From UHGV virus genome UHGV-0285350: a stretch of DNA of 44,975 nt. One strand, written 5' to 3'. The position numbers and the translations under genes are program-made. The notes beneath the pieces are model-generated. The model was given only the letters and a program-made list of their open reading frames with translations, was not told the DNA's origin and did no database searches. Source of the DNA: a virus. Positions 6,263-22,341 of the stretch are shown here, in pieces; the stretch's first letter is position 1; each line of letters begins with the position of its first letter.

Positions 6263-6301
6263 TATGGCATTCGGTAATCATCACGGAGGATCAAATGACT
6301 A

Positions 6302-6604: not shown

Positions 6605-6674
6605 AACAGATACCCGGTTACGGACCGGGTTCTGACCAGAGTCCACTTAATACGCACGCTAGTAAGGGCAAAAA

Positions 6675-7013: not shown

Positions 7014-7069
7014 TATAGTAAAACACATACAAAAAGCCCACTTAGCAAGTGGGCTTTCCTTTGTAATTA

Positions 7070-7372: not shown

Positions 7373-7434
7373 GTTTGGCGGTCTGGATGACCGCTATTTT
7401 CATAAAATAGATATTAGAAATCACGGTAGTTTAT

Positions 7435-8163
7435 ATGAATACAGATTCATCAACAGAAAAATTGACTGAAAATGATCTAATCAAAGTATCTTTTGGAGAT
7501 GCCATAAAAGACAAGCTTTTTAATAAAGTGTTTGCATATATATTCATTTCTTTTCTAATTATTAATTGGAAAGATATACTAATATTGATGAAGTCAAAGG
7601 ATGATATCCTATATACTTTATCTGTAACATTTGTTGGAGGTAAGATTCCTCTAGTTTATGAAGGCGTTTTGTCTCCTTGGTTTTATCATTTTTGCTTGCC
7701 ATTTATTTTTGGAATTATTGCATCAATTGCAGCTCCGATTGTCACTCTTTGCGTATCAAAGCTAACAAGTAAAATATATACAGAGATAAGGTATTTGGAT
7801 GCCGACATGGATCAAAATAAAAGAAAGGCGTTGCAAATAAAAGAGACTGAAATAATAAAAAGTATTAATGATACACAATTCAACAAAAGAATTATGGATG
7901 AAAATAAAAATGAACTTGAGAGATTGCTTAGGCAGCAAAAAGAGATTATGGCGGCAATAAAATTATTATATGATGATGTTGGAGTTATCATTGAGCTTTT
8001 TAAAAGTAGAGGGGTTGGTATTGACTCCCCAGAAAAGTTATATGATTTTGTAATGGCAATAAAGAAGACTTCGCTTTATAATGGTGATCATGATTTTAAT
8101 AAATTGGTTGCTGATATTTCAAATTTATTTGATAAAACGGAAATTGATTTTTCAAAAAGATGA
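7435..8163 (+). CDS. hypothetical membrane protein (2 predicted TM helices plus Lys/Glu-rich coiled-coil tail) in strongly AT-rich DNA
   Basis: Hydrophobic segments VFAYIFISFLIINW and FYHFCLPFIFGIIASIAAPIVTLCV; region about 7380-8200 is markedly AT-rich relative to flanks. Confidence 0.6.
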   Translation: MNTDSSTEKLTENDLIKVSFGDAIKDKLFNKVFAYIFISFLIINWKDILILMKSKDDILYTLSVTFVGGKIPLVYEGVLSPWFYHFCLPFIFGIIASIAAPIVTLCVSKLTSKIYTEIRYLDADMDQNKRKALQIKETEIIKSINDTQFNKRIMDENKNELERLLRQQKEIMAAIKLLYDDVGVIIELFKSRGVGIDSPEKLYDFVMAIKKTSLYNGDHDFNKLVADISNLFDKTEIDFSKR

Positions 8164-8196
8164 AAGCCTAGCCTAGGCAGCTAGGCTATGTGTGGT

Positions 8197-9390
8197 TTAT
8201 GCTTTTTTTACATACTCCATGAACATTTTTTCAGCTTGTGCTGGTGGTGTTCCAGCCATGACAAGCGCATCAATGAACGCCTGCTTCTTCAGTGCGAACT
8301 GATCGGCAAGGCGTTGCTGAAGCTCCTTGTTTTTCTGTTTCTCACGTTGCAAGGCCGCTTCTTTTGCTGCCGCCCGTTTTTTCTGTGCATCTGACAACTT
8401 TCTGGCCTTGGTCAATTGGTCACGTAGTTTGTCGATCTTGCCGTTGTCCTTTGCCAGTTTTGTACTTAAAGCTGCCTGGCGCTTCTGATAGAGTCTCCAT
8501 TCGCGTTTGGCGGCTTCAACGTTCGTTTTACTGCTACGATTGCGATTAAACTCCTTCTCGTCTTCTTTTGAGAAGTGTTTGGTTGTACGTCGGCGATCGT
8601 CACCAAATGCAATTTGCGTTGCAGCCTTTTGTAGTGCACGAGCAATACTCATTTGCCAACTTGCGGACTGTAACCGCGTCATTGAGTGGATCACGTGTTT
8701 ACAGGCGACGCCTTGTAGCTTAGGGTTACGAACTTTTGGATAGGCGTATTCTTTTGGCGGGGCCAGGGCAAAGTTACCCGCAGTAGCGATGTAACGATAC
8801 CAGTATTGATGACGACCACAGTCACAATCGAAAGACACTCGCCCGGCGCACAGTGATTTAGTGATTTTCAGAGCTGATTTATCGTCTTCTGCGATGTCAT
8901 CGACCATCTGATCCCATTCTTCAAAGCGTATCCGGACGATATGGTGCTGGTGGACGGATATATCCGATGCTTCTACGCGGATATTAATCACGTTGTGGCG
9001 AAGAGATACGGGTGTAGCTCTTTTGATACCAGATCCGTCATCCACGGCGTTATTTGCACGCTTAATATCGATTGCCTGGCTGGATGCCACCAGCTGGGCG
9101 TATGTGATGCCAGCCGTCTTGCTGTCATATTTTTCGCGCGTTTTACTCCGTAGCTTTTCGAAACCTTTCAGGTCGTCTCGCGTGAAGAACGTGCCGCCTT
9201 TTTTCTTCCCTAACTTGAGAATATCTTCGGCGGATTTGTTCCTCAGTCTACCTGGCGTCAGAGTCCGGTGAGCTTGTCGGCGCTTACGGGTTTGTTCTTT
9301 CCTGATAAGATCGAATAAACGCGTGAAGTCCTTAGAGGACAGACCGTCAGTGATATAGCGCCCGTCCTGGTTTTTCAGGAAATCAGGCAT
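8197..9390 (-). CDS. hypothetical protein with SWIM-type zinc-finger motif and Lys/Ala/Gln-rich coiled-coil C-terminus
   Basis: CDCGRHQYWYRY...GVACKHV fits CxC-xn-CxH (SWIM) pattern; 397 aa; stop convergent with the membrane-protein gene. Confidence 0.55.
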   Translation of the reverse strand: MPDFLKNQDGRYITDGLSSKDFTRLFDLIRKEQTRKRRQAHRTLTPGRLRNKSAEDILKLGKKKGGTFFTRDDLKGFEKLRSKTREKYDSKTAGITYAQLVASSQAIDIKRANNAVDDGSGIKRATPVSLRHNVINIRVEASDISVHQHHIVRIRFEEWDQMVDDIAEDDKSALKITKSLCAGRVSFDCDCGRHQYWYRYIATAGNFALAPPKEYAYPKVRNPKLQGVACKHVIHSMTRLQSASWQMSIARALQKAATQIAFGDDRRRTTKHFSKEDEKEFNRNRSSKTNVEAAKREWRLYQKRQAALSTKLAKDNGKIDKLRDQLTKARKLSDAQKKRAAAKEAALQREKQKNKELQQRLADQFALKKQAFIDALVMAGTPPAQAEKMFMEYVKKA

Positions 9391-9712
9391 TTTCTATCTC
9401 CGGTTCCGCGCTCGCGTAATCACGGATCTTGTTCCTCAGCCATGCCACATCAGGAAGAGTTAACGTGGTCCCGGCGGGCATTTCTTCCATTTCTGACTCA
9501 TGGCCCACCAGCACCCGGAATACCCAGCGCAAATCTGCATTGCCATACGCCCTGTAGGCTGCAAGGTCTGAACGATATACTTCATCAATCTTTATCGTGT
9601 ACTGGAAATTATCAGAGTGATACTCCGATACCCGCTTAATCATTTCCTGGTGAAACAGCGCACGAAAAATATCGTCTTCAATGTACCTATCGTCGAGTCT
9701 GCTATAGCCCAT
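9383..9712 (-). CDS. hypothetical protein (upstream partner of SWIM protein, overlapping start/stop)
   Basis: 109-aa ORF whose stop overlaps the start of 8197..9390; no motif recognised. Confidence 0.5.
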   Translation of the reverse strand: MGYSRLDDRYIEDDIFRALFHQEMIKRVSEYHSDNFQYTIKIDEVYRSDLAAYRAYGNADLRWVFRVLVGHESEMEEMPAGTTLTLPDVAWLRNKIRDYASAEPEIENA

Positions 9713-9905
9713 AACAAAGCCTCTCAGTCATAACCTGGGGGAAACTGTATGCAGGGTGTGAAATGCGAGAAACAGACAGGCCACCAGTTCAGGGGGATGT
9801 GGTTCATAAATCCCCTCACTGGTGACAAGTGACTTTCATTAATCTTTATGCGGGGGCCAGCTTCATTTGCTGGCATTAGATTAAAAATTAAACGGAGTGA
9901 ATGAC

Positions 9906-10040
9906 ATGGATGTTATCTTCGAATTATTAATGCTAATTGATCTGTTTATGAACGCTTCATTGACCACTCAAATACTCGCGTCAATATTTTTGTTACTCTT
10001 CTACCTGGTATTGAGGGAGTTAACAAAGCTACTAATGTGA
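9906..10040 (+). CDS. possible small hydrophobic peptide (44 aa, one TM-like segment)
   Basis: ATG after GGAGTG; translation MDVIFELLMLIDLFMNASLTTQILASIFLLLFYLVLRELTKLLM*; AT-rich; below the track's 60-aa cutoff, coordinates from my own reading. Confidence 0.3.
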   Translation: MDVIFELLMLIDLFMNASLTTQILASIFLLLFYLVLRELTKLLM

Positions 10041-10694
10041 TCAAAGTATCACGGTATCTTCATCAACTTCTTTCCCAGCCAGTGACTTTGGCTGGGAGGT
10101 GCCTGCTTTAACTTTTTCATGCCCAATAATGGACAGGAACGAAGCGAGTATGCCTGTTTTTTGCTCTTTCTCGACTGTACCGGTCATCTGCTCTACATAA
10201 TCTGCACTGGCAACGTTGTGGTATACGGTCGCGTAGCAACACAGGATCATCAGAATATGCTCCGGCCTGATATCCTGCCAGTTCACCCTGTAGACTTCTT
10301 CTCCGTTACCGTTGTATTCGGTATCAACGATAGAGTCGGGGATTTCGAAAGCACCTTTGTTATTTTGCGGCAGGGATAATAGTTTCTGGAGTTTTAACTC
10401 TCTGTATCTTTCCATCCCAACGATGATTGCTGCTCTACCATCGGCATGACGGGTCTTGAGAGTCACCTGGCTTGCTCCGGTGCCAGCGGAGATCGTTGGC
10501 GTAATTTCGTCTACTAGAACCTTAAATTTGCTTTTCCGCAGGGCTGCTATAGCTGGAGGAATTTTTTGCTTTTGCTCCAATGCTGACGCGGGAAGGGGTT
10601 TTACTTCGTTAATAATGAGAGCACCGTCTTTCAGTATTGCAGTGAGCATTTGAGGCTTGCTGGTGGTCAGGCTGAATATTGCGATCTTTTCCAT
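10041..10694 (-). CDS. hypothetical protein
   Basis: Start placed at ATG (MEKIAIFSL...) preceded by GGAGGAAGG SD; track ORF extends to 10736. Confidence 0.55.
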   Translation of the reverse strand: MEKIAIFSLTTSKPQMLTAILKDGALIINEVKPLPASALEQKQKIPPAIAALRKSKFKVLVDEITPTISAGTGASQVTLKTRHADGRAAIIVGMERYRELKLQKLLSLPQNNKGAFEIPDSIVDTEYNGNGEEVYRVNWQDIRPEHILMILCCYATVYHNVASADYVEQMTGTVEKEQKTGILASFLSIIGHEKVKAGTSQPKSLAGKEVDEDTVIL

Positions 10695-10721
10695 TTTCCT
10701 TCCTCCACGGATGACGGATAC

Positions 10722-10745
10722 AAAAAAAGGCCGCACATGGCGGCC
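10722..10745 (-). terminator. intrinsic-terminator-like hairpin on minus strand (ggccgc-acatg-gcggcc followed by T7) just upstream of the 10041..10694 gene
   Basis: Stem-loop and adjacent A7 on + strand (T7 on -) read from sequence. Confidence 0.35.
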
Positions 10746-10962
10746 TGCTTTGGCGTTATGACTCCCTACCGCGCTTCGGCTGAAAGTTAATCGTCAAAAG
10801 AACCTTCAACGGGAGCCGTTAGCGCGATGGATTATGTGCAGTTTGTGATTTCCAAAATAGTGTCAACCACTTTTTGTGGATTTTATTTTTTGACCGAAAT
10901 TTGGCCTAAATCATGTTGATGTAGTTAATTGTTTTTATAACATAAAACTTCATTTTGTTTAC

Positions 10963-11586
10963 ATGAAGGATGGTGTAGTGAAGTTAAGGGTTTTAGGGGC
11001 CGCGCTCGCGGCTATGTTGGGATGCGTATCTGCTAATACTGCCAATGCAACTGCGTTACCTGCACAATTCAGGGCAGGGCAGCAGGTTATGAATAACGCT
11101 GGTGGGGATCATTCACAAGCGGCCATTATGGACTTTTGCAAGAGGGAGGGCATTCCATTACGGCCTGTTGGAACTCAGTTTATTGGTAAAACTGACTTTT
11201 GCGTTTTTGCATATACAGCATATCTGACGGGCAAAGCTATAACAAAAACAGGTTACTCAACCAAAGATACTCTTTCCAGATTAAGTCAGGGATGGCAGCA
11301 ATTCGAAGTGTATCGCCAGCAAGGATTAGGTGAGTTATTGCAACCACTTTTTATGCTTGCATTGGTGCCCGAGGGGCAGCAATTTTTGGTTAAAAAGGGA
11401 ATGCTTCGCCAAAGTGATATTGCCGGGTTCGATAGCATGATGGCTTATGAGCGCAAACTAACCGAGCAGCGAAATAAAAAACCATCTGCTTCATGTGTGC
11501 AAAGTAAAACAGCAGAATACAGTGCAGTAGCCGGGCCTTTAGCCAAACAAATGGCAGAGCAATGGTGTAAAAAATACGGGCAATAA
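10963..11586 (+). CDS. hypothetical secreted protein (N-terminal signal peptide)
   Basis: N-terminus KLRVLGAALAAMLGCVSANTANA is signal-peptide-like; true start may be GTG at about 10978. Confidence 0.55.
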   Translation: MKDGVVKLRVLGAALAAMLGCVSANTANATALPAQFRAGQQVMNNAGGDHSQAAIMDFCKREGIPLRPVGTQFIGKTDFCVFAYTAYLTGKAITKTGYSTKDTLSRLSQGWQQFEVYRQQGLGELLQPLFMLALVPEGQQFLVKKGMLRQSDIAGFDSMMAYERKLTEQRNKKPSASCVQSKTAEYSAVAGPLAKQMAEQWCKKYGQ

Positions 11587-11606
11587 GTTACGCAGCGGAG
11601 GCAGAA

Positions 11607-11999
11607 TTGAAAAGATTGGCTATTGCTTTACTGGCGTCTTTCCCTTTGATCGCGAGCGCCGGAAATTTACAAGTTAAGTGCGGTCGGTTTGATATAAAAA
11701 TCTATCCGGATGCCATATTTCTGAATGGGAATAAGGTTGATAACGCACACCGAAAAACTGAATCTGACGTAATGAGCTATGTGTTCCAGGAGTATGCGGA
11801 GATGGGGGGAACTTATACGCTGTACTCGCTGGATGTTCCTTCTCGCGGTGATATGACATTATCCCATCAATGGCAGAACGCCGATGGAGAAGCTCTGCGC
11901 GAGGTTAAAATAGAAAAATGTGGCACTTTCCATTCTTTTAAAGGGAAAGCGCCAAATGTTAAATCTGTGCTTGAAAAACAGCGCACAGGTGAGCTTTAA
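11607..11999 (+). CDS. hypothetical secreted/periplasmic protein (signal peptide)
   Basis: MKRLAIALLASFPLIASA signal peptide with AxA cleavage motif; no other motif recognised. Confidence 0.55.
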   Translation: MKRLAIALLASFPLIASAGNLQVKCGRFDIKIYPDAIFLNGNKVDNAHRKTESDVMSYVFQEYAEMGGTYTLYSLDVPSRGDMTLSHQWQNADGEALREVKIEKCGTFHSFKGKAPNVKSVLEKQRTGEL

Positions 12000-12307
12000 G
12001 CCCCTTTAATCACGGAGATGTCGTTCCCCGTACGATAACGACGGGGAACGGAATTATCCATCAGGTCACGAATTGCTCCCGCTTCACGTAGTTCCTCTGT
12101 TTCCCTGTATCTATTTGTCACCAGATCCAGGCTGGCAATGACTTTGTGCCGGTCATTCGGCATAGCCAATTTTTCTGCCATTATCATCAGCGACAAATCT
12201 TCATCCAGAAGAATTTGATACCAGTTTTTTGATAGTTCTACTTCCCTTATGAGACTGAAACGTCGCTGGATTGTTGCAGCAGAGTAAGTGAAATCTATTT
12301 TCTTCAT
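11996..12307 (-). CDS. hypothetical protein
   Basis: 103-aa ORF; stop overlaps the end of the upstream convergent gene. Confidence 0.45.
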   Translation of the reverse strand: MKKIDFTYSAATIQRRFSLIREVELSKNWYQILLDEDLSLMIMAEKLAMPNDRHKVIASLDLVTNRYRETEELREAGAIRDLMDNSVPRRYRTGNDISVIKGA

Positions 12308-12369
12308 CGTGCGGAGAATCCGGTTATTTAGTAGTTAAAGCCCCGACGACCCCGGGTAACCCTACACCT

Positions 12370-12543
12370 TCAGGCTTTATGCTTGGTTGATTTCTTCTTG
12401 GTTTGCTTGCAGGCGTAGGCCATTGCTTTAGCTTTCACTTCATCCAGTTTACCAGTAATCACTTCTTTTCCGAGAGTGACAAACCAGTCATAGCAACCGC
12501 CAGTAATGTTCTTGATTTGAAAGTTGAGGTAGCGAACAGTCAT
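12370..12543 (-). CDS. possible small basic protein (57 aa, Lys-rich C-terminus)
   Basis: ATG preceded by GGGGGTG SD; translation MTVRYLNFQIKNITGGCYDWFVTLGKEVITGKLDEVKAKAMAYACKQTKKKSTKHKA*; not in track (<60 aa). Confidence 0.35.
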   Translation of the reverse strand: MTVRYLNFQIKNITGGCYDWFVTLGKEVITGKLDEVKAKAMAYACKQTKKKSTKHKA

Positions 12544-12874
12544 TTTGACACCCCCGGCGCGAGTAAAGAATGCAGATTATCGCGTGAGTGGTGGACGACG
12601 AGTGATGGGAAAAGACTGTAGTTGTTCATAGTGTAGTGACTCCTTGCTTTCGGAGCCGCCATCGACTGTTCCACGGTCTGGTGGCGGCGCAATAAAGGCT
12701 GGAACACCGTGAGTCAACGGGGGCTTTTCAGCCACCTATATTGCACCGCCATTGGTATGGCGGCAGCAATCATACGAAAAACTAAATAGTTTGTCTCAAA
12801 AAGTTGACCGGTGTGCCAATCGGTAGTGAATGTACATCGGAGCATTTTTCAATTCAACTTAAAATGTTAGAAAA

Positions 12875-13453
12875 CTAATTTATCAATTCAATCGCCATCT
12901 GATACAACGTCATTTCATCGGCATTGTGCCGCATGAAATCTGCTTTTCCGCCTATTTTTCCATCAGCATGAACAGGGACCAGCCAGGGATATTGTTCTCG
13001 GACCTCGGCTGGCGCTGCGTACTGGTGGTGCCATTTACACAAAGGGAGGACATATTTATGCGCGTTCTCTGCCGTTCTCCCGAAGATATGGTGCAGGGAT
13101 ACCACTGGGCTATGTTGCCCGTGAATATGGCAGGCAATGCAGGGGAGAGTACCGATAGCGGTCTGTATCCGGCGTTCATCGGCTGTGAGTGATCTGCCCT
13201 TCAGGCCGCGTGACGTGCGTGTTTTTTTGGACGGAGTGGATACAGCTTTCTCTTTTCTCCGCTGGTCATATTGCTTTGCTTTTTCAATTCTCTTTTGCCG
13301 ATATTCAGGCGATGCGGCTTTTTCTCTCGCTCGTTGCTGCTGGCGTTGAGCTTGTTGAAGGCGCTTTGCCCTTTGTTCCTCTCGCCAGGCTGGGTCAGCC
13401 AATTTTTGCATGGCTTTTTGTCTCTGTTTCTCCCAATAGCTCTGTTTCTGCAT
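12875..13453 (-). CDS. Ref-like (phage P1 recombination enhancement function) HNH-type nuclease with basic low-complexity N-terminal region
   Basis: N-terminal about 90 aa Arg/Lys/Gln-rich; C-terminal LPCIACHIHGQHSPVVSLHHIFGRTAENAHKYVLPLCKWHHQ has Cys/His spacing of an HNH zinc-finger nuclease; architecture matches P1 Ref as I recall it. Confidence 0.55.
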   Translation of the reverse strand: MQKQSYWEKQRQKAMQKLADPAWREEQRAKRLQQAQRQQQRAREKAASPEYRQKRIEKAKQYDQRRKEKAVSTPSKKTRTSRGLKGRSLTADERRIQTAIGTLPCIACHIHGQHSPVVSLHHIFGRTAENAHKYVLPLCKWHHQYAAPAEVREQYPWLVPVHADGKIGGKADFMRHNADEMTLYQMAIELIN

Positions 13454-13484
13454 GATGGCTGCCTCTTACTTTTCAGCTATTTTT

Positions 13485-13535
13485 CTATGATTGATCAAAA
13501 TAGTTAGATATTCAAAATTGATTTTCTAACACAAA
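13485..13535. promoter_or_regulatory. divergent control region with repeated TTCTA/TTAGA half-sites including TTTTCTAACA
   Basis: ttttcta...tagttagata...attttctaacacaaaac read from sequence between the leftward Ref-like gene and the rightward early operon. Confidence 0.35.
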
Positions 13536-13725
13536 ACATTAATATCATTTCTGATAACTGTTTGGAGGACATGATGCTTATAGCTTTAAGTGCGATCCAC
13601 CAGCCATCTGTGAATGAGATTGGCCTGTTCTATGTGTTGTTTTTCGGGGCGTTGGCGCTACTTGAGCTTGGTATTGAGCTTTTCGCAGTGCTTATGTTTT
13701 GCGTCACGATTTTGGGGAAATTTTG

Positions 13726-14337
13726 ATGGTGAAACGTGTTTTGAAAATTTACATCGCGGGGCCGATGACTGGTTATCCAGATTACAACCGTGCGGCGTTT
13801 AATGCGAAAGCGAGCGAGTTGATGGCTGAAGGGCATATCGTTCTGAATCCAGCTGTGTTACCTGGTGGCCTTTGTCAGAGTGAATACATGGATATTTGCC
13901 TGGCAATGGTGCGTTCTGCTGATGCGATCTACTTGCTCAATCGATGGGAGGAATCGATTGGTGCTCGTGCAGAGCACGCGCTGGCTGAAAAGCTGGGGCT
14001 GACTGTAATTTATGAGTCACCAACCAACATTGAATGCCAGGTTGCTCCGCATATTTACCGGGAACTGGTCAATGCACTGCGTGATATCGCTGCTGTATAT
14101 CACGGCACAGAACAGCTTCGTGAGCGTTTAGCCCATACCATTTTCTATTACCTGTCTTTATCTCATGAGCACAAGCTCCGCCAGAAGGTAATGATCAAAT
14201 TTATCATGAGGTTATCGAAATCCCTGGCAAACGCCGATCCAAAGAATCCATTACCGAAAGAGGCAATGAATTACCTGAAATCCTGCAACGTTGTTTCTGA
14301 AGATGGCGTTCTTTTGGTTAGAAGGAGTTCTGCGTGA
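13726..14337 (+). CDS. DUF4406-like (nucleoside 2-deoxyribosyltransferase-like fold) protein with about 100-aa C-terminal extension
   Basis: KIYIAGPMTGYPDYNRAAFNAKASELMAEGHIVLNPA matches the YIAGPM(T/S)G signature; start at ATG 13726. Confidence 0.55.
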   Translation: MVKRVLKIYIAGPMTGYPDYNRAAFNAKASELMAEGHIVLNPAVLPGGLCQSEYMDICLAMVRSADAIYLLNRWEESIGARAEHALAEKLGLTVIYESPTNIECQVAPHIYRELVNALRDIAAVYHGTEQLRERLAHTIFYYLSLSHEHKLRQKVMIKFIMRLSKSLANADPKNPLPKEAMNYLKSCNVVSEDGVLLVRRSSA

Positions 14338-14366
14338 GCTGGCGGGGATGGGGAAGGGCAGAAATC

Positions 14367-14651
14367 ATGATACTCCGCCAGTGCGCCGGGACTATGACAG
14401 TCGAGAGTATTGGGAGGCTGATCGGGCGTACCGGTAGTGCTGTCAGAACCAAAGCGCGGCAACTGCGGATCTGCATGATTCTGAAAGGAGACTTTCACCC
14501 GTCAGCCAAATACCGGCAGGGCGATATAGAACTGGCACGGCAGCTTCATCGGTGTGGTGTTCCCCGCCGTGAGATCGCGGAAAAACTCGAAATGCCCCTG
14601 GGCATGATTAATCAGTACGTTTATTTCGAAAGGAGAGTGTATGAAGTCTGA
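14367..14651 (+). CDS. hypothetical small protein with two HTH-like segments (putative DNA-binding)
   Basis: Start placed at ATG after GGGAAGGG; track ORF starts at GTG 14334 overlapping the previous stop. Confidence 0.4.
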   Translation: MILRQCAGTMTVESIGRLIGRTGSAVRTKARQLRICMILKGDFHPSAKYRQGDIELARQLHRCGVPRREIAEKLEMPLGMINQYVYFERRVYEV

Positions 14652-15192
14652 AGGTTTAACGCCCGCACAACTGGCAGAGCGTAACGCTGAGTATGTAACG
14701 GAAATTTCCCGACTTGAGAAAGCGTGTGCTGCGCTGGCGGCGGAGAATGCTGGGCTGAAGTCTGAAGCTCCACTTGGTGCCATCGAGAATGGCAGAGCGT
14801 TTGCAGACCGTTTAGAGAATTACCAGTTCGAGTGTGAAGGCGGAAACCTAAACATGTGCAGTGATTGGCAGGAGTTTCGCCGTTGCTTCGAGTATTTATC
14901 TGAATGGGCAATGCATAGCCAGACAGAGCACCCAGCCACCGATGCTTTCCTGGCTGAAGTGAAGACTGAAGCACGCAAGGAGGGCGCTTACTTTGTGGCG
15001 AACAGAATGCTGGCTGCCTGGGAAGCTGGTTTTATTGATGATACTGCGAAGAACGCCGCGGATATTGCCCGGATGATTCTTACCTCTACTGAGTTTATGG
15101 CTAATGCGCCGGAAGGCGATTTTGACCGCTCATTCTCTGATGGCGTTCTCGAAGATATCGCCGCCCAGCTTGGAAAAGGAGGCAAACAGTGA
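14641..15192 (+). CDS. hypothetical protein, paralogue A (coiled-coil N-term; conserved C-terminal domain shared with 16304..17002)
   Basis: Shares ALEAKCAALAAENA(G/R)LK and PATDAFLAEV(K/R)(T/A)EAR(K/N)EG blocks and C-terminal GKGGKQ/RKGSSQ with the downstream paralogue. Confidence 0.6.
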   Translation: MKSEGLTPAQLAERNAEYVTEISRLEKACAALAAENAGLKSEAPLGAIENGRAFADRLENYQFECEGGNLNMCSDWQEFRRCFEYLSEWAMHSQTEHPATDAFLAEVKTEARKEGAYFVANRMLAAWEAGFIDDTAKNAADIARMILTSTEFMANAPEGDFDRSFSDGVLEDIAAQLGKGGKQ

Positions 15193-15377
15193 GTAACCGT
15201 TTTTACATGATGTGCTTGCGTGAAACTGTGGGTAATAACGCCTCATTCCATTGCCATAACGGCAATGGTTACAGTTCTTGGCGCGGCGGAAGCGTTTATG
15301 ATGCAGAAGCATGGCGAGATGGCTATGAAGCAGGGAAAACGCCTGTCGAAGTATATTGTGATGAGTGGGGTGGGTGA
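15189..15377 (+). CDS. small Cys/His-containing protein (62 aa)
   Basis: GTG start overlapping upstream stop (GTGA); stop overlaps methyltransferase ATG (TGAATG); residues C9, HCH, C57. Confidence 0.4.
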   Translation: MSNRFYMMCLRETVGNNASFHCHNGNGYSSWRGGSVYDAEAWRDGYEAGKTPVEVYCDEWGG

Positions 15378-16106
15378 ATGATTTGCCTTCACAACGCAGA
15401 CTGCTTTGACATCTTTCCGCAAATCGCCAGCAACTCCGTAGATCTTGTATGTGCCGATATTCCATATGGAACAACTCGGTGTCGCTGGGATTCTGTTCTC
15501 GACCTGCAGTTGATGTGGAAGCAGATTTACCGTATTTCCAAACCGAACGCTGCAATTGTTCTGTTTTCCGCTCAGCCTTTTACCAGCGTGCTGGTCAACA
15601 GCAATCTTCGTGACTGGAAAACAGAATGGATTTGGGAAAAGCCACACGCGACAGGATTTTTGAACGCAAAAAAACAACCTTTAAGAGCGCATGAAAATAT
15701 TGAAGTTTTTTACAGAAAGCAACCGACATACAACCCACAGATGACGTATGGGCACGCCAGAAAAACCTCAACAAGAGGTAGGCTGAATACTGATGTATAT
15801 GGCGATGCGCTGAAAAAGGTCGTTTACGATTCAACAAGTCGCTATCCGAGAGACGTGCAGAAATTCTCCAGCGACAAGCAAAAGCAGGCACTTCATTCAA
15901 CACAAAAGCCACTGGCTCTGGTGAGATATCTGATTGAAACATATAGCAATATTGGCGACACAGTGTTGGATTTCACTATGGGTAGCGGAACTACTGGCGT
16001 TGCGTGCCAACAATCAGGACGCCGATTTACAGGAATAGAAAAAGATCCAGAAATTTTTCGTATCGCATTAGAGCGTATGGGAATTAAACAGGAGCATGCA
16101 GCATGA
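15378..16106 (+). CDS. DNA methyltransferase, N6-adenine/N4-cytosine beta class
   Basis: Motifs DIPY (catalytic DPPY variant), HSTQKP, and FTMGSGTTGVA (SAM-binding FxGSGTT) in beta-class order. Confidence 0.85.
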   Translation: MICLHNADCFDIFPQIASNSVDLVCADIPYGTTRCRWDSVLDLQLMWKQIYRISKPNAAIVLFSAQPFTSVLVNSNLRDWKTEWIWEKPHATGFLNAKKQPLRAHENIEVFYRKQPTYNPQMTYGHARKTSTRGRLNTDVYGDALKKVVYDSTSRYPRDVQKFSSDKQKQALHSTQKPLALVRYLIETYSNIGDTVLDFTMGSGTTGVACQQSGRRFTGIEKDPEIFRIALERMGIKQEHAA

Positions 16107-16124
16107 TTTTTGTGGAGGCAACCA

Positions 16125-16307
16125 GTGAGCGAAATTAACTATCAAGAACTGCGCGAGGCGGCGGAACAGGCAACGCAAGATGAATGGGTAGCATATATTT
16201 TGCCGGTCATAACGGCATTTATCCTGCGCGCACGTCTGAGGGTAGGCATTGCGGATACTTTATTGACTGGCCTGGCGTCTGTCAGGGGCGGGAGAGCATC
16301 AGCATGA
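16125..16307 (+). CDS. possible small protein (60 aa)
   Basis: GTG 6 nt after GGAGG; stop overlaps start of next gene (ATGA); track lists a longer in-frame ORF from 16110. Confidence 0.35.
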   Translation: MSEINYQELREAAEQATQDEWVAYILPVITAFILRARLRVGIADTLLTGLASVRGGRASA

Positions 16308-17002
16308 GCATCAGAACCTACGCAGTGAATTGCAATGACGCATGGCTAAACACCGAAGGTGATGACATCTCCGGCTCATACGTTAAGTACAAAGACCATC
16401 AGGAAGTGGTTGCCGCTCTTGAGGCCAAGTGCGCGGCGCTGGCAGCGGAGAATGCAAGACTGAAGGCCGGGGCTATGTATTTCTCATATGGCTCTGAATT
16501 TAGTTTCGAGTGTCACAAAACTGCTGAGGAGGCTATCGCTGCTGCTGAGGCTGCAATTGACGACTATAGAGGCGATGCTTGCGATGGATGGAGCGAAGAG
16601 GTCGAAAGCATTTGCTGGGGGGTAATTATTCAGCAGGCAACCAAGGTCGGTGAACGCAAGAAGAGGAAATGCGACAGAGTATCACCATGGATTGAAAGAG
16701 TTTGTGATTATGAGCTTCGACCTAATGTCGAAACCCCAGCCACCGATGCTTTCCTTGCTGAAGTACGTGCTGAAGCACGCAACGAGGGGATTAACTATAC
16801 CGCCAGCCGTCTTGCTGCTGCGTTCAATCACGGATTTATCAATAAGTCTTTGCGTGAAGTTTTCGACGTTACACGCATGATTTTGTCAGCGAAAGAAGAG
16901 TTGGCTAATGAAGCGCATCCGATTGATGGCCTGTCTGGTGAATATGCGGAGAAATCCCTTGAAGAATGGGCGGAACAGATTCGCAAAGGAAGCAGCCAGT
17001 GA
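16304..17002 (+). CDS. hypothetical protein, paralogue B (with Cys-containing insertion)
   Basis: Same conserved blocks as 14641..15192 plus an about 60-aa insertion (CHKTAEEA...CDGWSEEVESICWG...KCDRVSPWIERVCD). Confidence 0.6.
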   Translation: MSIRTYAVNCNDAWLNTEGDDISGSYVKYKDHQEVVAALEAKCAALAAENARLKAGAMYFSYGSEFSFECHKTAEEAIAAAEAAIDDYRGDACDGWSEEVESICWGVIIQQATKVGERKKRKCDRVSPWIERVCDYELRPNVETPATDAFLAEVRAEARNEGINYTASRLAAAFNHGFINKSLREVFDVTRMILSAKEELANEAHPIDGLSGEYAEKSLEEWAEQIRKGSSQ

Positions 17003-17274
17003 ATATCGACACGACAATAACGATCGATACGCTCCTAAATACCGGTCTGGCACTTCTCGGTTGGCTTTACATCATGTCCCGTACCTGGCGATGGCTGGGT
17101 TCCATTTTCCTAAAAGAGTGGAAAAAACGGCGCAAACAGGAACTACGCCAGAAGGCATTAGAAGCGTTCTATGACGCATTTGAACTTAGCCGCATTGAAC
17201 CAGGCACAACAGCCAGAATAGCGACAAAAGGCGACCTGATGATAGTGATGTTCAGACAGGAGAAAACCAAATGA
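16999..17274 (+). CDS. small membrane protein (1 TM)
   Basis: GTGA overlap with upstream stop; hydrophobic LLNTGLALLGWLYIMS followed by basic stretch. Confidence 0.4.
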   Translation: MNIDTTITIDTLLNTGLALLGWLYIMSRTWRWLGSIFLKEWKKRRKQELRQKALEAFYDAFELSRIEPGTTARIATKGDLMIVMFRQEKTK

Positions 17275-17495
17275 CAGAACAGACGATGACAAATCGCGAA
17301 CTTGTTGATGCCGCGATTGAACTTGCTGGCGATTTTTATTCCATGATGGGGTACACGCATCGCCCAGGCTTCAAATATTGGGAGTCTCCGCACCCGCAAG
17401 AGCAACGGGTATTTCAAATGGCCTGCCGCGCTTTTGAAGTTATTCGCGGTTCTGATGTGATGGACGCGGTTGCTGATTTGGAGGATGAAGAGTGA
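17271..17495 (+). CDS. hypothetical protein
   Basis: 74-aa ORF translationally coupled to neighbours. Confidence 0.45.
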   Translation: MTEQTMTNRELVDAAIELAGDFYSMMGYTHRPGFKYWESPHPQEQRVFQMACRAFEVIRGSDVMDAVADLEDEE

Positions 17496-17803
17496 ACACA
17501 ATTAAAGAAATGCCGGTAGAACGTGATGAATATGGCTGCTGGACACATCCGGAGTATGAAAAGTTTTGCGCAGGTCGTGAATATATTTCTACTGAGGAAT
17601 TTGACGCCTGGATGAAGGAAAATAATCTTCAGTGGACTATTCGCAGTATGGATGAAGATGATTTTGATCTGGACGCAGCTGGTCCCGATATTGCCGCCTG
17701 GGAACCGGAGCGACCAGAGGGTGAAGGCTGGTTTGTTGGCTCTATTCATGACACTGAAGATGGTCCGGTTTGTATCTGGCTGCGTGAGAAGGTTGCCGCA
17801 TGA
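17492..17803 (+). CDS. hypothetical acidic protein
   Basis: 103-aa ORF translationally coupled to neighbours. Confidence 0.45.
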
Positions 17804-18492
17804 CCCAGGCTCTGCATGAAGTGAATTTATATAGCCGTATTGATGGTTCTGGCTATAGAAACATATGGGTTGTTGGTGATCTGCATGGTTGCTACACCAG
17901 ACTGATGTCCGAACTCCATCGTGTGGATTTTGACCCGGCGCAGGATTTACTGATATCGGTTGGCGACCTTATCGATCGCGGTACTGAAAATGTCGAATGT
18001 CTGGAACTATTGCAGATGCCCTGGTTCAGGGCAGTAATGGGGAACCATGAGCGGTTGATGCTTGATGCGTTAAGTCCTGATGGCAACGTGAATAACTGGC
18101 TAATGAATGGCGGACAATGGTTCTTCATGCTGGACACTGATCAGGAAATATTAGCCAAGGCGCTGGTGGAGCTGGTAAAGCGTCTGCCATATATCATTGA
18201 GTTGAACGCCGGGCATGAAACTATCGTTATAGCCCATGCCGACTATCCAGGTGGAGAGTACCAGTTCGGTAAGGATGTGTCGCTTTTTGATGTTGTCTGG
18301 TCGCGCAGTCGCGTCGGTGATTCGATAGATGGCATTGGTGGAGAAATCACAGGCGCAGATCGCTTTATCTTTGGGCACACACCGGTACGAAGACCAAAAG
18401 CATACTGGAATCAGCACTACATAGACACGGGCGCGGTTTTTTGCGGAAATCTGACGCTAATGCAGGTGAAGGGAGGGCAGCTTAAAGTCTGA
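17800..18492 (+). CDS. serine/threonine protein phosphatase (lambda-phosphatase-like metallophosphoesterase)
   Basis: Metallophosphatase motifs GDLHG, GDLIDRG, GNHE in canonical order. Confidence 0.85.
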
Positions 18493-18518
18493 TCAAATCA
18501 TTTACGCACTCAAATCAC

Positions 18519-18546
18519 GTTAGAACATTGATTTTAGTTTTCTAAC
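18519..18546. promoter_or_regulatory. inverted repeat GTTAGAA-N14-TTCTAAC upstream of the 18590 operon; candidate operator
   Basis: Read from sequence; same motif family as 2897-2940 and 13522-13531. Confidence 0.35.
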
Positions 18547-18589
18547 ATATTATTTTACCGATCGGAACAAAACAGAGTCGGTATGCATT

Positions 18590-19585
18590 ATGAGTGCAAT
18601 AATCACCCCATATGTCGTAAATGAAACTGGTGTGGCTGTCTTTCCTGTAGATAAGCCCACCAGCAATTACATCGGCGCAGGACGCCGTTTTCTTATATCC
18701 CCATTGCCGCGTGAACAGGCTGAAAACACCCCTGATGGTGTCGTTGACCTGAATTATTCACTGGTTGCCAACCAGTCACTGGCACCCTTTTTTCAAAGTG
18801 AGCGTGTATTTAACGCGTTAGGTGGTGAGGATTCTCTCGTTCACTGGGTTAGCACCAACATTCACGATTGCCAGGCGCACGATAAGCGCGATTGCAGCCA
18901 CCAGCTAACCACTCATTTCTATAACGGCTCTGCCGTTCGCCTGTGCTGGAAGCATGATGCGGAATACATGATGAAGGGGTACAGCAAGCTGGACGACCAG
19001 TTATCCCTGAATCGTGCCAACTGGGTTATGAACTGGGCTGCGAGCGAGTTAAAACTACCGCCAGAACGCGATCTGAGCATGGTTGAACTCACTTTTTGGG
19101 CCATTCGCCGGAATCTGAAAGATGAGCTGCCAGATGAAGCCGGTCGCATTGCATTTTGTCAGCCAAAAACTGAAATCCCTACCGGTACGCTGAAAGAATC
19201 AGATATCACCTGGGAGCACAGTACCCGCGAGCTGGTGGACATAACCGCAGAGCAGATCGTCAACCTGTCTGTAGATGAGGATTCCGGCCTGCTTTATATG
19301 CGCCGACCAAAAGCGGTCCTCGGTAAAAGCCCGGCTTATCTCCGGTTTGTGGTTTCTCGTCCGTGCATCGGATGCGGTGGCAAAGTTAACCACCCGTTCA
19401 TGTACCGCGCCCGCTCGTTAAACGAACACGACCGCTGGGCTGTTCCTCTTTGCGATGACTGCGCCAGAAGCGCAGAAAACGATGTCCGGGCATGGGAAAA
19501 AGCACATGGCATACGCCTTTACGTAGCCGCTAACCAGCTTTTTGACTTCGCCATCGAGCGCGGAGTGATCACTTTCAATAACTGA
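18590..19585 (+). CDS. hypothetical protein with C-terminal HNH-like zinc-ribbon motif
   Basis: C-terminus RPCIGCGGKVNHPF...SLNEHDRWAVPLCDDCA fits CxxC-x5-H-x10-N-x2-H-x7-CxxC (HNH core); large N-terminal domain unassigned. Confidence 0.5.
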   Translation: MSAIITPYVVNETGVAVFPVDKPTSNYIGAGRRFLISPLPREQAENTPDGVVDLNYSLVANQSLAPFFQSERVFNALGGEDSLVHWVSTNIHDCQAHDKRDCSHQLTTHFYNGSAVRLCWKHDAEYMMKGYSKLDDQLSLNRANWVMNWAASELKLPPERDLSMVELTFWAIRRNLKDELPDEAGRIAFCQPKTEIPTGTLKESDITWEHSTRELVDITAEQIVNLSVDEDSGLLYMRRPKAVLGKSPAYLRFVVSRPCIGCGGKVNHPFMYRARSLNEHDRWAVPLCDDCARSAENDVRAWEKAHGIRLYVAANQLFDFAIERGVITFNN

Positions 19586-19589
19586 TGAG

Positions 19590-20282
19590 GTGGATCAAAA
19601 AATGAAAGAACGCGGGATGATTTTTAACGATGAGATGGTCAGGGCCATCCTCGAAGGAAGGAAGACGCAGACTCGCCGACCTGTAAAAAATGTCAGGGCC
19701 GATAACTGCCTGGTTATCCGTAAACCGACAAAGAAACGCAATGGTGTCTATACCCACGTTATGGATGCACCTGAACATGGTTTATGCCCGTTCGGTAACG
19801 TTGGTGATCGCATATGGGTCCGTGAGGCGTGGGCGATATTAGGCAATGAGGATGGTTGCAGTGTGGACTGGAACGACAACCTTTGTCGTGGCGATGAGAA
19901 GAACGCAGCAAGGATTTATCGGGCCAGTTGTGAGCAAAAGCCGGGTGATTACGGCTTGTGGTCGATACCCGATGATGCCGACTGGAAACCTCACACTGTG
20001 AATGAAAAATTTGATGGCGGGTGGTGTCCATCAATTCACATGCCGCGCTGGGCATCGCGCATTTTGCTGGAAATTACCGACGTGCGTGTGGAACGGCTGC
20101 GTGATATGAGCGAGGCAGATGCTAAAGCAGAAGGCGCATCTCCGGCGATGTACAAAATTACGCCGCCGGAAGCTGTTTATCGCGTTGGTTTTGGTGATAT
20201 CTGGCGCAGTATTTACGGGCAGGATAACTGGCTATCTAACCCGTGGGTATGGGTAATCGAGTTTAAGCGCGTTCAGGAATAA
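19590..20282 (+). CDS. ASCH/PUA-like domain protein (tentative) with Cys-containing insertion
   Basis: N-terminal MIFNDEMVRAILEGRKTQTRR resembles the ASCH GxKxxExR motif; C-terminal ...ILLEITDVRVERLRDMSEADAKAEG resembles the conserved ASCH C-terminal strand; assignment by motif recall only. Confidence 0.45.
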   Translation: MDQKMKERGMIFNDEMVRAILEGRKTQTRRPVKNVRADNCLVIRKPTKKRNGVYTHVMDAPEHGLCPFGNVGDRIWVREAWAILGNEDGCSVDWNDNLCRGDEKNAARIYRASCEQKPGDYGLWSIPDDADWKPHTVNEKFDGGWCPSIHMPRWASRILLEITDVRVERLRDMSEADAKAEGASPAMYKITPPEAVYRVGFGDIWRSIYGQDNWLSNPWVWVIEFKRVQE

Positions 20283-20285
20283 ACC

Positions 20286-21164
20286 GTGAGTATGCATCAA
20301 GTTGTCAGCTTTTCAGGTGGACGAACATCGGCTTATCTCGTTCATCTGATGGAAGCACAGCGAAAAGCTGGCGCTAGCGTCCATTTCATTTTTATGGATA
20401 CCGGCTGTGAACATCCTCTGACGTATCGCTTTATTCGTGAGGTTGTGAAGTTCTGGAACGTACCGCTAACGGTGTTGCAGGTCGATATAAATCCAGAACT
20501 TGGGCAGCCAAATGGTTATACGGAATGGGAACCAAAGGATATTCAGACGCGAATGCCGGTGCTTAAACCGTTTATGGACATGGTTAAAAAGTACGGTACG
20601 CCATACATCGGCGGCGCGTTCTGCACTGACAGATTAAAACTCACCCCCTTCACAAAATACTGCGATGACCATTTCGGACGAGGGAATTACATCACATGGC
20701 TGGGTATTCGTGCAGACGAACCTCGTAGGCTGAAACCAAAATCGGGCGTCCGGTATCTTGCCGAGCTATCTGATTTTGATAAGTCGGATGTTATCCGGTG
20801 GTGGCATAAACAACCTTTTGATTTGCAAATCCCGGAGCATCTCGGGAACTGTATTTTCTGCATCAAAAAGTCCACGCAAAAACTGGGGCTTGCATGTAAA
20901 GACGAACCTGGTCTGATGCGGGTTTTTAATGAACTGGTTACAGGCAAACACGTCAGGGATGGTCATCGCAGAACAGGTAAAGACGTTATGTACCGTGGTC
21001 ACCTGACGCTTGACGGGATTGCCAGAATGTATGCCGACAGCGACTACAGAAATTTGTATCAGGCGATGGTGCAGGCCAAGCGGTTTGATACTGGTTCGTG
21101 TTCCGAATCATGTGAAATCTGGGGTGACCAATTGGAGTTGAAATTCGAAGAGGTAGTGGTATGA
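20286..21164 (+). CDS. PAPS-reductase-family PP-loop protein with C-terminal Cys cluster
   Basis: VVSFSGGRTSAYL is the PP-loop (SGGxxS) of the PAPS reductase / adenine-nucleotide alpha-hydrolase family; cysteines GNCIFCIKK and CSESCEIW suggest a metal or Fe-S site. Confidence 0.75.
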   Translation: MSMHQVVSFSGGRTSAYLVHLMEAQRKAGASVHFIFMDTGCEHPLTYRFIREVVKFWNVPLTVLQVDINPELGQPNGYTEWEPKDIQTRMPVLKPFMDMVKKYGTPYIGGAFCTDRLKLTPFTKYCDDHFGRGNYITWLGIRADEPRRLKPKSGVRYLAELSDFDKSDVIRWWHKQPFDLQIPEHLGNCIFCIKKSTQKLGLACKDEPGLMRVFNELVTGKHVRDGHRRTGKDVMYRGHLTLDGIARMYADSDYRNLYQAMVQAKRFDTGSCSESCEIWGDQLELKFEEVVV

Positions 21165-21640
21165 CAAACAAAATTGACTATCAAAAACTTCGTGAAATCG
21201 CTGAAAAAACAAAAATTGCTGGTGAAGCACCTGTAATGCCTTTCGATCAGCGAATTAATGCGCTTAACGATTTTATGAAGCACTTTTCGCCAGATATCGC
21301 GTTGGCATTGTTGGATGAAGTTAAACGCCTAGAAGACACAAATATTGATTCTATATGCCGAATTGCAGAGATGGAGACGCGGGAAATAAAACCAGCAAAA
21401 GGCGAAGTTCTTGTCGTTGTATCTGGTTTTACTGGTTGCGGAAAAAGCGCCATTGCCGGGGAAATAGAAATCGCGATGAAGGCTATTGGTGTACCGGTTC
21501 AGTGGACTAATGGCGATGCAGAAAAGCGCATGACAGGAGCTGACTGGCTGACAGCAATTGAGATGTACAAACCAACAGTGCGCATCGTTGAAGTTAATGT
21601 GCCACGCGTCCCTGGCATTCGCATCAAAGGAGGTGAGTAA
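21161..21640 (+). CDS. hypothetical small P-loop protein
   Basis: VVVSGFTGCGKSAIA matches Walker A GxxxxGK[ST]; only 159 aa. Confidence 0.45.
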   Translation: MTNKIDYQKLREIAEKTKIAGEAPVMPFDQRINALNDFMKHFSPDIALALLDEVKRLEDTNIDSICRIAEMETREIKPAKGEVLVVVSGFTGCGKSAIAGEIEIAMKAIGVPVQWTNGDAEKRMTGADWLTAIEMYKPTVRIVEVNVPRVPGIRIKGGE

Positions 21641-21816
21641 TGCGTGTGGCATGTATCGGCTTGTTACCGTACCCGACTCGTTTTTGGGCTTCTGCGCTAA
21701 TTGCAAAGCCACATGTACTGATGGCTGACAACATCATCCCGGCACCAAATCGCCGCCATACCGGTATTGCAGCGGCACGACGTGCAGCAAAGAAACGCAG
21801 GAGAGCAAAGCGATGA
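21640..21816 (+). CDS. possible small Arg/Lys-rich protein (58 aa)
   Basis: ATG overlaps upstream stop (TAATG) and is preceded by AAAGGAGGTGA SD; stop overlaps next ATG; not in track (<60 aa). Confidence 0.45.
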   Translation: MRVACIGLLPYPTRFWASALIAKPHVLMADNIIPAPNRRHTGIAAARRAAKKRRRAKR

Positions 21817-21995
21817 AAAACCGTAAGGCAAAAATTCTGTTAGCTCGCAGAAACGGTGTTGGGGTCTGGCGATGGTTGAGGATTAGTAACAGACGAGTGA
21901 GGTTGACGGGGTGTTGCGGGGTGATGTTGCACAGCTGTTGCAAAAAGCCCAGCGCGGCGCAAAACCGCTGGAAGAATCACACTAACGCAAAGTAA
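21813..21995 (+). CDS. possible small Cys-rich basic protein (60 aa)
   Basis: ATGA overlap with upstream ORF; CCGVMLHSCC cluster. Confidence 0.35.
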   Translation: MKNRKAKILLARRNGVGVWRWLRISNRRVRLTGCCGVMLHSCCKKPSAAQNRWKNHTNAK

Positions 21996-22012
21996 TTAAA
22001 TAATAACCAATA

Positions 22013-22038
22013 ACAGACCAAAACATATGTTTTGGTCT
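22013..22038. promoter_or_regulatory. perfect 26-bp palindrome CAGACCAAAACAT|ATGTTTTGGTCTG, followed by a second CCAAAA-N6-TTTTGG repeat
   Basis: Read from sequence; exact dyad symmetry around AT|AT; sits between the early operon and the gemA region. Confidence 0.45.
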
Positions 22039-22062
22039 GCCAAAAGTAGTGTTTTGGTCATT

Positions 22063-22341
22063 ATGAAGATTGAACAAGTCGGAATGGCAGCTTTCAGGCA
22101 ACAGGCTGAAAGCGGTGGCGTGGATGAGTTCGTCGTGCAGCGGTTCGGTGGTGTGTATCACCTCTTCGCTGTGAATCGCCGCGCCGGGGTGTCCTATTTT
22201 CTACAGGAACGCCGTGGCGATTACAAGACGTGGCTGTCTCTTGACCGTGCCGCCGCGTTCCTGTCGGGGATTGGTGTTTCACGTTTTACCGTGCGTTTTG
22301 AGGATAACAAACATGCTGAAAAAGATGATCGGGGCCATTAA
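22063..22341 (+). CDS. hypothetical protein
   Basis: ORF in track (22027..22341); start ambiguous (ATG 22027 inside palindrome, or ATG 22063); no clear SD for either. Confidence 0.35.
   Translation: MKIEQVGMAAFRQQAESGGVDEFVVQRFGGVYHLFAVNRRAGVSYFLQERRGDYKTWLSLDRAAAFLSGIGVSRFTVRFEDNKHAEKDDRGH

Follow-up and report, generated by a model that had tools for sequence, protein, structure and literature searches.

A lambda NinC ortholog within a probable mosaic of accessory genes in a D6/P1-like phage-plasmid sequence

Gene content of the region

The virus genome UHGV-0285350 (44,975 nucleotides (nt), analysed over its whole length and referred to below as the window) was found to carry four closely packed open reading frames (ORFs) on one strand between positions 18590 and 21640. 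The initial annotation, made from the letters alone, described them as a cassette of an HNH-like zinc-ribbon protein, an ASCH/PUA-like protein, a PAPS-reductase-type PP-loop protein with a Cys cluster and a small P-loop protein, and suggested that together they form an undescribed modification or anti-restriction system. The close packing on the same strand was confirmed, and the proposed system did not survive the comparison with other genomes. In other phages any one of the four can be found without the remaining three, and the region is likely to be a mosaic of accessory ('nin/ea-like') genes from a D6/P1-like phage-plasmid rather than dedicated machinery built from several genes. The third gene, ORF3, is an ortholog of lambda NinC.

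18590-19585, plus strand: ORF1, 331 amino acids (aa)
19590-20282, plus strand: ORF2 as a mechanical ORF from GTG 19590, 230 aa; 19602-20282 from the likely ATG, 226 aa
20286-21164, plus strand: ORF3, 292 aa from GTG 20286 or 290 aa from ATG 20292
21161-21640, plus strand: ORF4, 159 aa

The mechanical ORF1 and ORF2 are separated by 4 nt and ORF2 and ORF3 by 3 nt, while the stop codon of ORF3 and the start codon of ORF4 overlap in the sequence ATGA. For ORF2 the ATG at 19602 is the more likely start, as it is preceded 8 nt upstream by GAGGTGG and MKERG is the N-terminus both in the homologs and in the RefSeq entry; ORF3 may start at either of its two candidate codons. The part of the window that includes these genes (6000-21980) shares 96-97% identity with E. 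coli plasmids of about 92 kb related to phage D6, which is a P1-like phage-plasmid, and plasmids with this arrangement of genes can be found, with annotation, in RefSeq.

Occurrence of the four genes in other genomes

In D6 the order of genes is ppp, pdcB (the same gene as ORF1), orf99 and orf100, and neither ORF2 nor ORF3 is present. Nucleotide sequence identity between the window and D6 (blastn) ends right past the stop codon of ORF1 and picks up again inside ORF4, so that ORF1 and ORF4 can be assigned to the backbone and ORF2 and ORF3 to a replaceable slot, which in D6 is taken up by orf99. The breakpoints coincide with gene boundaries. Lambda and the Shiga toxin (Stx) phages have NinC and lack ORF1, ORF2 and ORF4. 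No more than 12 of 5426 complete E. coli genomes had at least 80% of the 3.5-kb region, and the full set of four genes was also found in 4 viral contigs.

Three samples of loci were compared, namely the 80 closest viral loci with NinC, 65 diverse NinC loci drawn from contigs representing one genome per species, and 80 diverse loci with a member of the ORF2 family. Among the closest viral loci, NinC stood alone in 63 of 80, in the Stx-phage arrangement where it lies in the early-left region following exo/bet/ssb; a gene of the ORF2 family was directly upstream in 11 of 80 and a DUF968 gene, the family of ORF1, was found in 5 of 80. The diverse NinC loci included an ORF2-family gene in 2 of 65 cases, in neither of them directly upstream of NinC, and DUF968 within 3 kb in 4 of 65, the usual neighbours of NinC being SSB, NinG/Rap, NinB, replication genes and Q. 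Conversely, NinC was present at 1 of the 80 diverse ORF2-family loci, and a NinC-family hidden Markov model searched against all ORF2-family loci matched just this locus, which was already known. The genes found next to ORF2-family members encode Ead/Ea22 proteins, integrase, RecT, DksA-like proteins and DNA methylases.

These data bear on the proposal that the products of the four genes cooperate in a so far undescribed system, which might serve nucleic-acid modification or anti-restriction or be a modification-dependent nuclease. The tight spacing, the translational coupling of ORF3 and ORF4 and the presence of the full set in the 12 E. coli genomes and 4 viral contigs speak for it, and the mixture of a His-Me nuclease, an ASCH/PUA-like protein, a PP-loop protein and a Walker-A motif superficially resembles that of modification systems. 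Moreover, phosphorothioation systems pair a protein having a PAPS-reductase domain with a P-loop NTPase (PMC12914056). However, the copies of the full set are near-identical (96-99% nucleotide identity) and belong to a single plasmid lineage, D6 has ORF1 and ORF4 yet neither ORF2 nor ORF3, the breakpoints fall at gene boundaries, and broad co-occurrence was not found in the locus samples. The P-loop-like domain of ORF4 is moreover only about 93 aa long and matched no PADLOC model. The ATPases of the DndD, SspC and BrxC type are large proteins, unlike this domain. Families of the 7-deazaguanine pathway were absent from the Pfam and NCBIfam matches. As conserved synteny in related phages is largely absent, a four-gene system lacks support and is considered very improbable; the combination that had drawn attention is an outcome of phage mosaicism. 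A search of the literature on NinC, DUF968 and ASCH together with PAPS reductase disclosed no functional study of this gene set.

A narrower alternative is that ORF2 and ORF3 constitute a module specific to P1/D6-like elements, in which a PP-loop writer is paired with an ASCH reader or eraser, and that ORF1 and ORF4 are bystanders. At 11 of the 12 NinC loci with the highest identity, which are in P1/D6-like plasmids, the two genes are adjacent with a fixed short spacer, the ORF2-family gene ending 6-9 nt before NinC, and some of these loci are without DUF968 in the examined flank. The ORF2-NinC junction is carried by 30 E. coli genomes, and ORF2 and ORF3 jointly replace D6 orf99. Both the adjacency and the number of genomes count against independent assortment of these two genes, and because the fixed spacer is kept within the P1/D6-like plasmids the pair may be functionally linked locally. 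Against a module stand the absence of NinC from 79 of the 80 ORF2-family loci and the occurrence of NinC without ORF2 in lambda, Stx phages and diverse prophages. ORF2 homologs adjoining NinC genes that are 98% identical range from 56 to 100% in identity, and hence the two are not co-evolving. Finally, the P1-like plasmid NZ_CP150020.1 (locus L243, positions 3150-3290, compared with 20230-20360 of the window) has an ORF2 homolog that is followed by the spacer and by no more than the first ~70 nt of NinC; beyond this point come the small ORFs found downstream of NinC in Stx phages. The arrangement is a deletion scar of NinC, and ORF2 was therefore retained without it. A two-gene module is thus thought unlikely, and independent assortment of the genes remains the preferred description of the region.

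ORF3 is related to lambda NinC

The product of ORF3 aligns with lambda NinC (lambdap64) over 285 of 290 residues without gaps and with 80% aa identity, and it matches phrog_424, a phage PAPS-reductase-like family, at 7.9e-93. The RefSeq name of lambda NinC is PAPS-reductase family protein. In alignments of 15 and 24 NinC-family sequences, reaching down to 51-52% identity, the PP-loop SFSGGRTS (S8-S15), the motif DTGxEH and six Cys residues (C113, C126, C189xxC192 and C272xxxC276) were invariant. The Pfam PAPS_reduct family was matched at 4e-9, by residues 6-72 only, and the sequence search against the Protein Data Bank (PDB) yielded two weak N-terminal matches, to CysH and an APS reductase, covering residues 6-70. 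With the SGGxxS signature intact and all six Cys conserved, the description of ORF3 as a PAPS-reductase-type PP-loop protein with a Cys cluster was borne out.

The AlphaFold2 model of ORF3 had a predicted local distance difference test score (pLDDT) of 85.7, residues 273-292 falling below 50 and representing a disordered C-terminal tail that bears Cys residues. Structural neighbours of the model found with Foldseek included CysH/APS reductase, LarE, MnmA, TtuA and GMP synthetase, with template modelling (TM) scores of 0.38-0.5, and the best PDB matches were 6vpu, 1sur and 2goy (probability 1.0, E 2e-4). ORF3 is thus a protein of the PP-loop ATP-pyrophosphatase fold in the superfamily of PAPS reductase, DndC and SspD. 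In the defence library of PADLOC, which provides no curated cut-off, the best match was SspD (1.1e-13, 49.5 bits) over residues 5-152, i.e. the N-terminal half, followed by BrxP and DndC. The score against the DndC model TIGR03183 was 17.9 bits, the cut-off being 290.4 bits, and a weak match to TilS was obtained in NCBIfam.

The Pfam PAPS_reduct match, together with CysH and APS reductase as the best Foldseek hits in the PDB, would be in keeping with a role of ORF3 as a CysH-like auxiliary metabolic gene that raises sulfate assimilation of the host by reduction of PAPS or APS. The likeness in fold does not discriminate, because it is common to all PP-loop ATP pyrophosphatases, and the Pfam match is confined to residues 6-72. 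The CysH equivalog NF002537 gave 21.9 bits with a cut-off of 154, and the TM scores were low as given above. In PAPS reductases the SGGxxS motif of the PP-loop is degenerate, whereas ORF3 has the ATP-type motif and does not have the C-terminal ECGLH motif. Furthermore, fusion or linkage to DNA adenine methylases recurs among its relatives, and the genomic context is always one of replication and recombination genes. An ordinary CysH function is therefore regarded as highly unlikely.

NinC-family proteins are linked to adenine methylases

The NinC-family profile was searched against 1.84 billion representative proteins, and 2953 family members were obtained. Ten of the longer representatives were scanned and six of them were fusions to DNA N6-adenine methyltransferases. 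The order is NinC-Dam in P0241, P0250 and P0271 and Dam-NinC in P0242 and P0243, while in P0248 the partner is a methylase of the D12 class (PF02086). Linkage was also counted at 36 diverse NinC loci, each with at least 8 kb of context. A Dam gene of the PF05869 type was fused to NinC, or lay on the same strand within 2.4 kb downstream of it, at 15 of the 36 (among loci L098-L142). The linkage of NinC to Dam is much stronger than its linkage to ORF1, ORF2 or ORF4.

A further NinC-family protein, P0082, is p0018 of Vibrio phage 44E38.1, in which a PAPS domain is fused to Dam. The alignment of ORF3 with this PAPS domain spans residues 3-282 with 55% identity (E 8e-111), and all six Cys residues are conserved in it. 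When p0018 was moved together with p0019 into a related phage, infection of a host carrying Dnd became possible (Piel et al., bioRxiv 10.1101/2021.05.05.442762), and a 2026 preprint lists phage PAPS reductases among candidate anti-defence genes in variable regions.

A different reading of the NinC family would make ORF3 a thiolase or modifier of RNA (of tRNA, as TtcA, TtuA, MnmA and TilS) or an enzyme acting on a small molecule, the linkage to Dam then reflecting a shared hotspot. It is in line with MnmA, TtuA and LarE as structural neighbours, with the weak match to TilS and with the CxxC and additional Cys residues, which are similar to those of Fe-S tRNA thiolases; accessory genes, too, cluster whatever their function. 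However, NinC domains precede the methylase in some fusions and follow it in others, and the methylases come from two unrelated families; mere co-location of NinC and Dam is for this reason hard to uphold. The closest match in the defence library, SspD, acts on DNA, and a homolog has been implicated in evasion of Dnd. An RNA or small-molecule substrate is accordingly rated as rather unlikely, and a role directed at DNA is preferred for ORF3.

During the survey, NinC matches of 80% identity were encountered in assemblies labelled Pseudomonas, Oceanobacillus, Bradyrhizobium, Kitasatospora, Shewanella and others that look like lambda DNA (L086-L096, L100, L112, L144, L151 and L152 in the genome_contigs set). 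NinB was 100% identical to lambda NinB in all five that were checked (L100, L112, L144, L151 and L152), and several of the remaining contigs are about 48.4 kb long, near the length of the lambda genome itself. These two facts point to contamination of public assemblies with lambda as the source of many NinC matches in unrelated genera.

ORF2 has an ASCH fold with a large insertion

The Pfam ASCH family aligned with residues 160-186 of ORF2 only, at 18.2 bits (E 0.0041), which is below the gathering threshold of 21.2 bits. The protein nevertheless has the ASCH fold, and the N-terminal motif GRKTQTRR is similar to the ASCH signature, so that the ASCH/PUA-like label was upheld at the level of the fold. 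About 70 residues (~86-156) form an insertion that was not placed in the AlphaFold model (pLDDT below 50) and includes the invariant residues W94, C114, Y121, S125, P127 and W145. The homologs P0147 and P0184 have a shorter segment in place of the insertion of the ORF2 type. The ORF2 family is large and is borne by phages or prophages.

No PDB chain was matched in sequence searches with the ORF2 profile or with trimmed ORF2, BLASTP gave no alignment of trimmed ORF2 with YqfB (for which an approximate sequence was used), and nothing was found in NCBIfam or PADLOC. ASCH domains are described as binders of modified DNA or modified RNA, and one of them, YqfB, is an N4-acetylcytidine amidohydrolase. 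It seems probable that ORF2 is an independent binder or hydrolase of modified nucleic acid of the ASCH type. The described properties of ASCH domains, and of YqfB as an amidohydrolase, would also suit the reader or eraser in the two-gene module considered above.

ORF1 is a DUF968 protein and ORF4 is related to Ead/Ea22

Residues 161-325 of ORF1 match Pfam DUF968 at 7e-45 (153.6 bits, gathering threshold 27.8), the alignment spanning positions 1-171 of the 171 in the profile, and phrog_96, an HNH endonuclease family, was matched at 4e-104. DUF968 has been placed in group 7 of the His-Me finger superfamily beside YdfU and YbcO (PMC5714182), which bears out the earlier HNH-like zinc-ribbon label. 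ORF1 thus consists of an uncharacterised N-terminal part of 160 aa and a C-terminal DUF968 domain with a His-Me finger and a Cys4 zinc ribbon, the two CxxC pairs of the translation being C259/C262 and C289/C292. The D6 counterpart, orf98, is annotated as similar to P1 gene pdcB. The Pfam scan of the N-terminal 160 aa gave nothing informative, and ORF1 had no match in the PDB sequence search, NCBIfam or PADLOC. From these matches ORF1 probably encodes a His-Me nuclease that acts in DNA metabolism independently of its neighbours.

Some DUF968 proteins have been proposed to carry an Orf-like N-terminal part (PMC4118853). The idea that DUF968 and NinC mirror the ninB-ninC pair of lambda was dropped, since BLASTP of ORF1 against lambda NinB/Orf showed no similarity.

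At its N-terminus ORF4 has a coiled region like that of Ead/Ea22 (Pfam PF13935 Ead_Ea22, 9e-6, 26.7 bits with a threshold of 27.0), and its homologs, D6 orf100 included, are annotated as ead/Ea22-like. The C-terminal module of about 93 aa (residues 67-159, window positions 21359-21640) carries GFTGCGKS, a motif of the form GxxxxGK[ST] that is conserved in every ORF4 homolog seen. The label of a small P-loop protein therefore stands as regards this Walker-A-like motif, but the Pfam P-loop families APS_kinase, AAA_16 and ParA were matched below threshold (E 0.015-0.1) and the domain is small. Among proteins of 159-222 aa the 93-aa module is 91-97% identical and the N-terminal Ead/Ea22-like parts are swapped. 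D6 orf100 (L002, 6487-7134) carries the module with no NinC beside it, and ORF4 is the counterpart of D6 orf100 with a swapped N-terminus. The module was observed in a Mu-like prophage too, and it looks like a recombination-prone shared cassette.

No informative match came from the Pfam scans of D6 orf99, of the 147-aa protein encoded upstream of NinC in Stx phages and of the small ORFs at 21640-22341.

Surroundings of the locus and the hybrid window

17800-18492, plus strand: ppp, the upstream neighbour, encoding a calcineurin-like Ser/Thr phosphatase of the P1 Ppp / lambda NinI type (Pfam Metallophos 4.4e-16)
18519-18546: inverted repeat of GTTAGAA, a 14-nt spacer and TTCTAAC, within the 97-nt spacer between ppp and ORF1
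21359-21996: junction zone common to D6-like plasmids and a transposable Mu-like prophage (from blastn segment maps)

The plus-strand run of genes starts near 13.6 kb, past a divergently oriented ref gene, and includes genes for DUF4406, Ead/Ea22-like and DUF4752 proteins and ppp before ORF1 is reached; the four-gene region is probably read rightward along with these same-strand neighbours. The phosphatase gene is annotated in D6 as similar to P1 gene ppp and is a backbone gene of D6/P1-like phage-plasmids. The inverted repeat in front of ORF1, which had been taken for operator-like, does exist, with arms of 7 nt, but four comparable pairs, this one included, were counted within 300 nt, and its designation as an operator is unsupported: no sigma-70-like promoter was detected near it, and the P1 C1 operator consensus had no match in the whole window with up to 3 mismatches allowed.

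The left part of the window (6000-21980) follows the D6-like phage-plasmid, and the right part (21996-44975), which includes GemA, Mor, lysis and late genes, follows a transposable Mu-like prophage, with 97% identity to E. coli chromosomal prophages and to an insertion in an F-plasmid of E. albertii. Elsewhere the Mu-like prophage carries c/ner/MuA/MuB, and the window is without this left end with repressor, MuA and MuB. The crossover module is ~0.3-0.6 kb long and consists of the C-terminal domain of the Ead/Ea22 protein and two ORFs of about 58-60 aa. The window may derive from a genuine recombination event or be a chimera produced during assembly. At the junction a strong terminator-like hairpin was noted on the minus strand (22011-22042), with a 14-bp stem, a 4-nt loop and a T-rich tail; its orientation is opposed to the direction of the early genes.

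Discussion

The locus is made up of known kinds of genes and does not represent a new system; as the cassette does not stand, it should not be pursued as one. It shows how accessory regions of phage-plasmids are assembled from singly exchangeable genes that are common to lambdoid and Mu-like phages. The earlier suggestion of a role in DNA modification or anti-restriction fails for the four genes as a module and is plausible for ORF3 alone, given its relation to the PAPS domain of p0018. From this relation and the linkage to methylases, ORF3 probably has a DNA-directed, sulfur-related role in anti-restriction.

A specific mechanism can be put forward tentatively, with somewhat less than an even chance of being right. 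Like other PP-loop enzymes, DndC and SspD among them, NinC would use its PP-loop and ATP to adenylate a substrate, here one linked to DNA. The six invariant Cys residues could form a centre of the Fe-S or cysteine-persulfide type, the C-terminal tail being mobile. Sulfur might be supplied by the host IscS. NinC would then install or mimic a sulfur-containing mark on DNA, e.g. a phosphorothioate, and the DNA of the phage or plasmid would thereby be protected against restriction systems that sense modification, such as Dnd, Ssp or BREX type 4. In an extended version NinC-type proteins would be stand-alone DNA-marking PP-loop/Fe-S enzymes whose mark, containing sulfur or of some other unrecognised kind, would in P1/D6-like phage-plasmids be read, edited or limited by ORF2, the two genes forming an undescribed counter-defence module; this is deemed quite improbable.

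Several observations weigh against an action of ORF3 of this kind. Two genes were moved in the anti-Dnd experiment, and the PAPS domain was not isolated from Dam (bioRxiv 10.1101/2021.05.05.442762). ORF3 ends after the PAPS-like domain and has no fused Dam, and no Dam of the PF05869 type was detected anywhere in the window. The only adenine methylase detected there is a D12-class protein of 333 aa (423-1424, minus strand), which lies 19 kb from ORF3 and matches the methylase half of P0248 (E 1.8e-77). In PADLOC no ATPase of the DndD/SspC/BrxC type, no DndE/SspB partner and no desulfurase was identified in the neighbourhood of ORF3; ORF1, ORF2 and ORF4 match no model, and therefore no partner of the Dnd, Ssp or BREX kind was detected among them. 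Phosphorothioation is regarded as requiring a P-loop NTPase partner (PMC12914056). The DndC score of ORF3 is far under the cut-off. In lambda, ninC is non-essential and has no reported phenotype (PMC10695390). We know of no report of phosphorothioates in lambda DNA.

The lambda gene ninC has long been known, though no function has been reported for it, and the family ties of its product point to a concrete role that can be tested. Because of the methylase linkage and the homology to the PAPS domain implicated in anti-Dnd activity, its function is accessible to study in the best-developed system of phage genetics.

Comparison with known systems

The closest counterparts of ORF1 are P1 PdcB and D6 orf98, the latter with ~96% nucleotide identity. 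ORF1 itself gives a full-length DUF968 match, and the E. coli prophage proteins YdfU and YbcO (DUF968/DUF1364) belong to the same group 7 of the His-Me finger superfamily. ORF2 is twice as long as E. coli YqfB, the N4-acetylcytidine amidohydrolase, and the ASCH domain 3s9x of L. crispatus, differing from both by the insertion of ~70 residues and a helical C-terminal extension.

ORF3 has the superfamily, the PP-loop and the conserved set of Cys residues in common with DndC, SspD and BrxP; the systems of these proteins include ATPase and DNA-binding partners, whereas no such partner was detected beside ORF3. The N-terminal PAPS domain of p0018 of Vibrio phage 44E38.1 has a counterpart in ORF3 over its whole length, and the Dam domain of p0018 has none. 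With lambda NinC, encoded in the ninR region, ORF3 shares the length, the PP-loop and the Cys pattern. The surroundings differ in part: lambda NinC follows ninB/orf in the nin region between P and Q, while ORF3 is flanked in a D6-like plasmid sequence by an ASCH gene on one side and a gene of the Ead/Ea22-like kind on the other. A NinI-type phosphatase is encoded in the NinC region of lambda, and in the window the Ppp phosphatase gene lies two genes upstream. On the basis of these sequence relations, ORF3 is assigned to the lambda NinC family, outside the CysH and DndC equivalogs.

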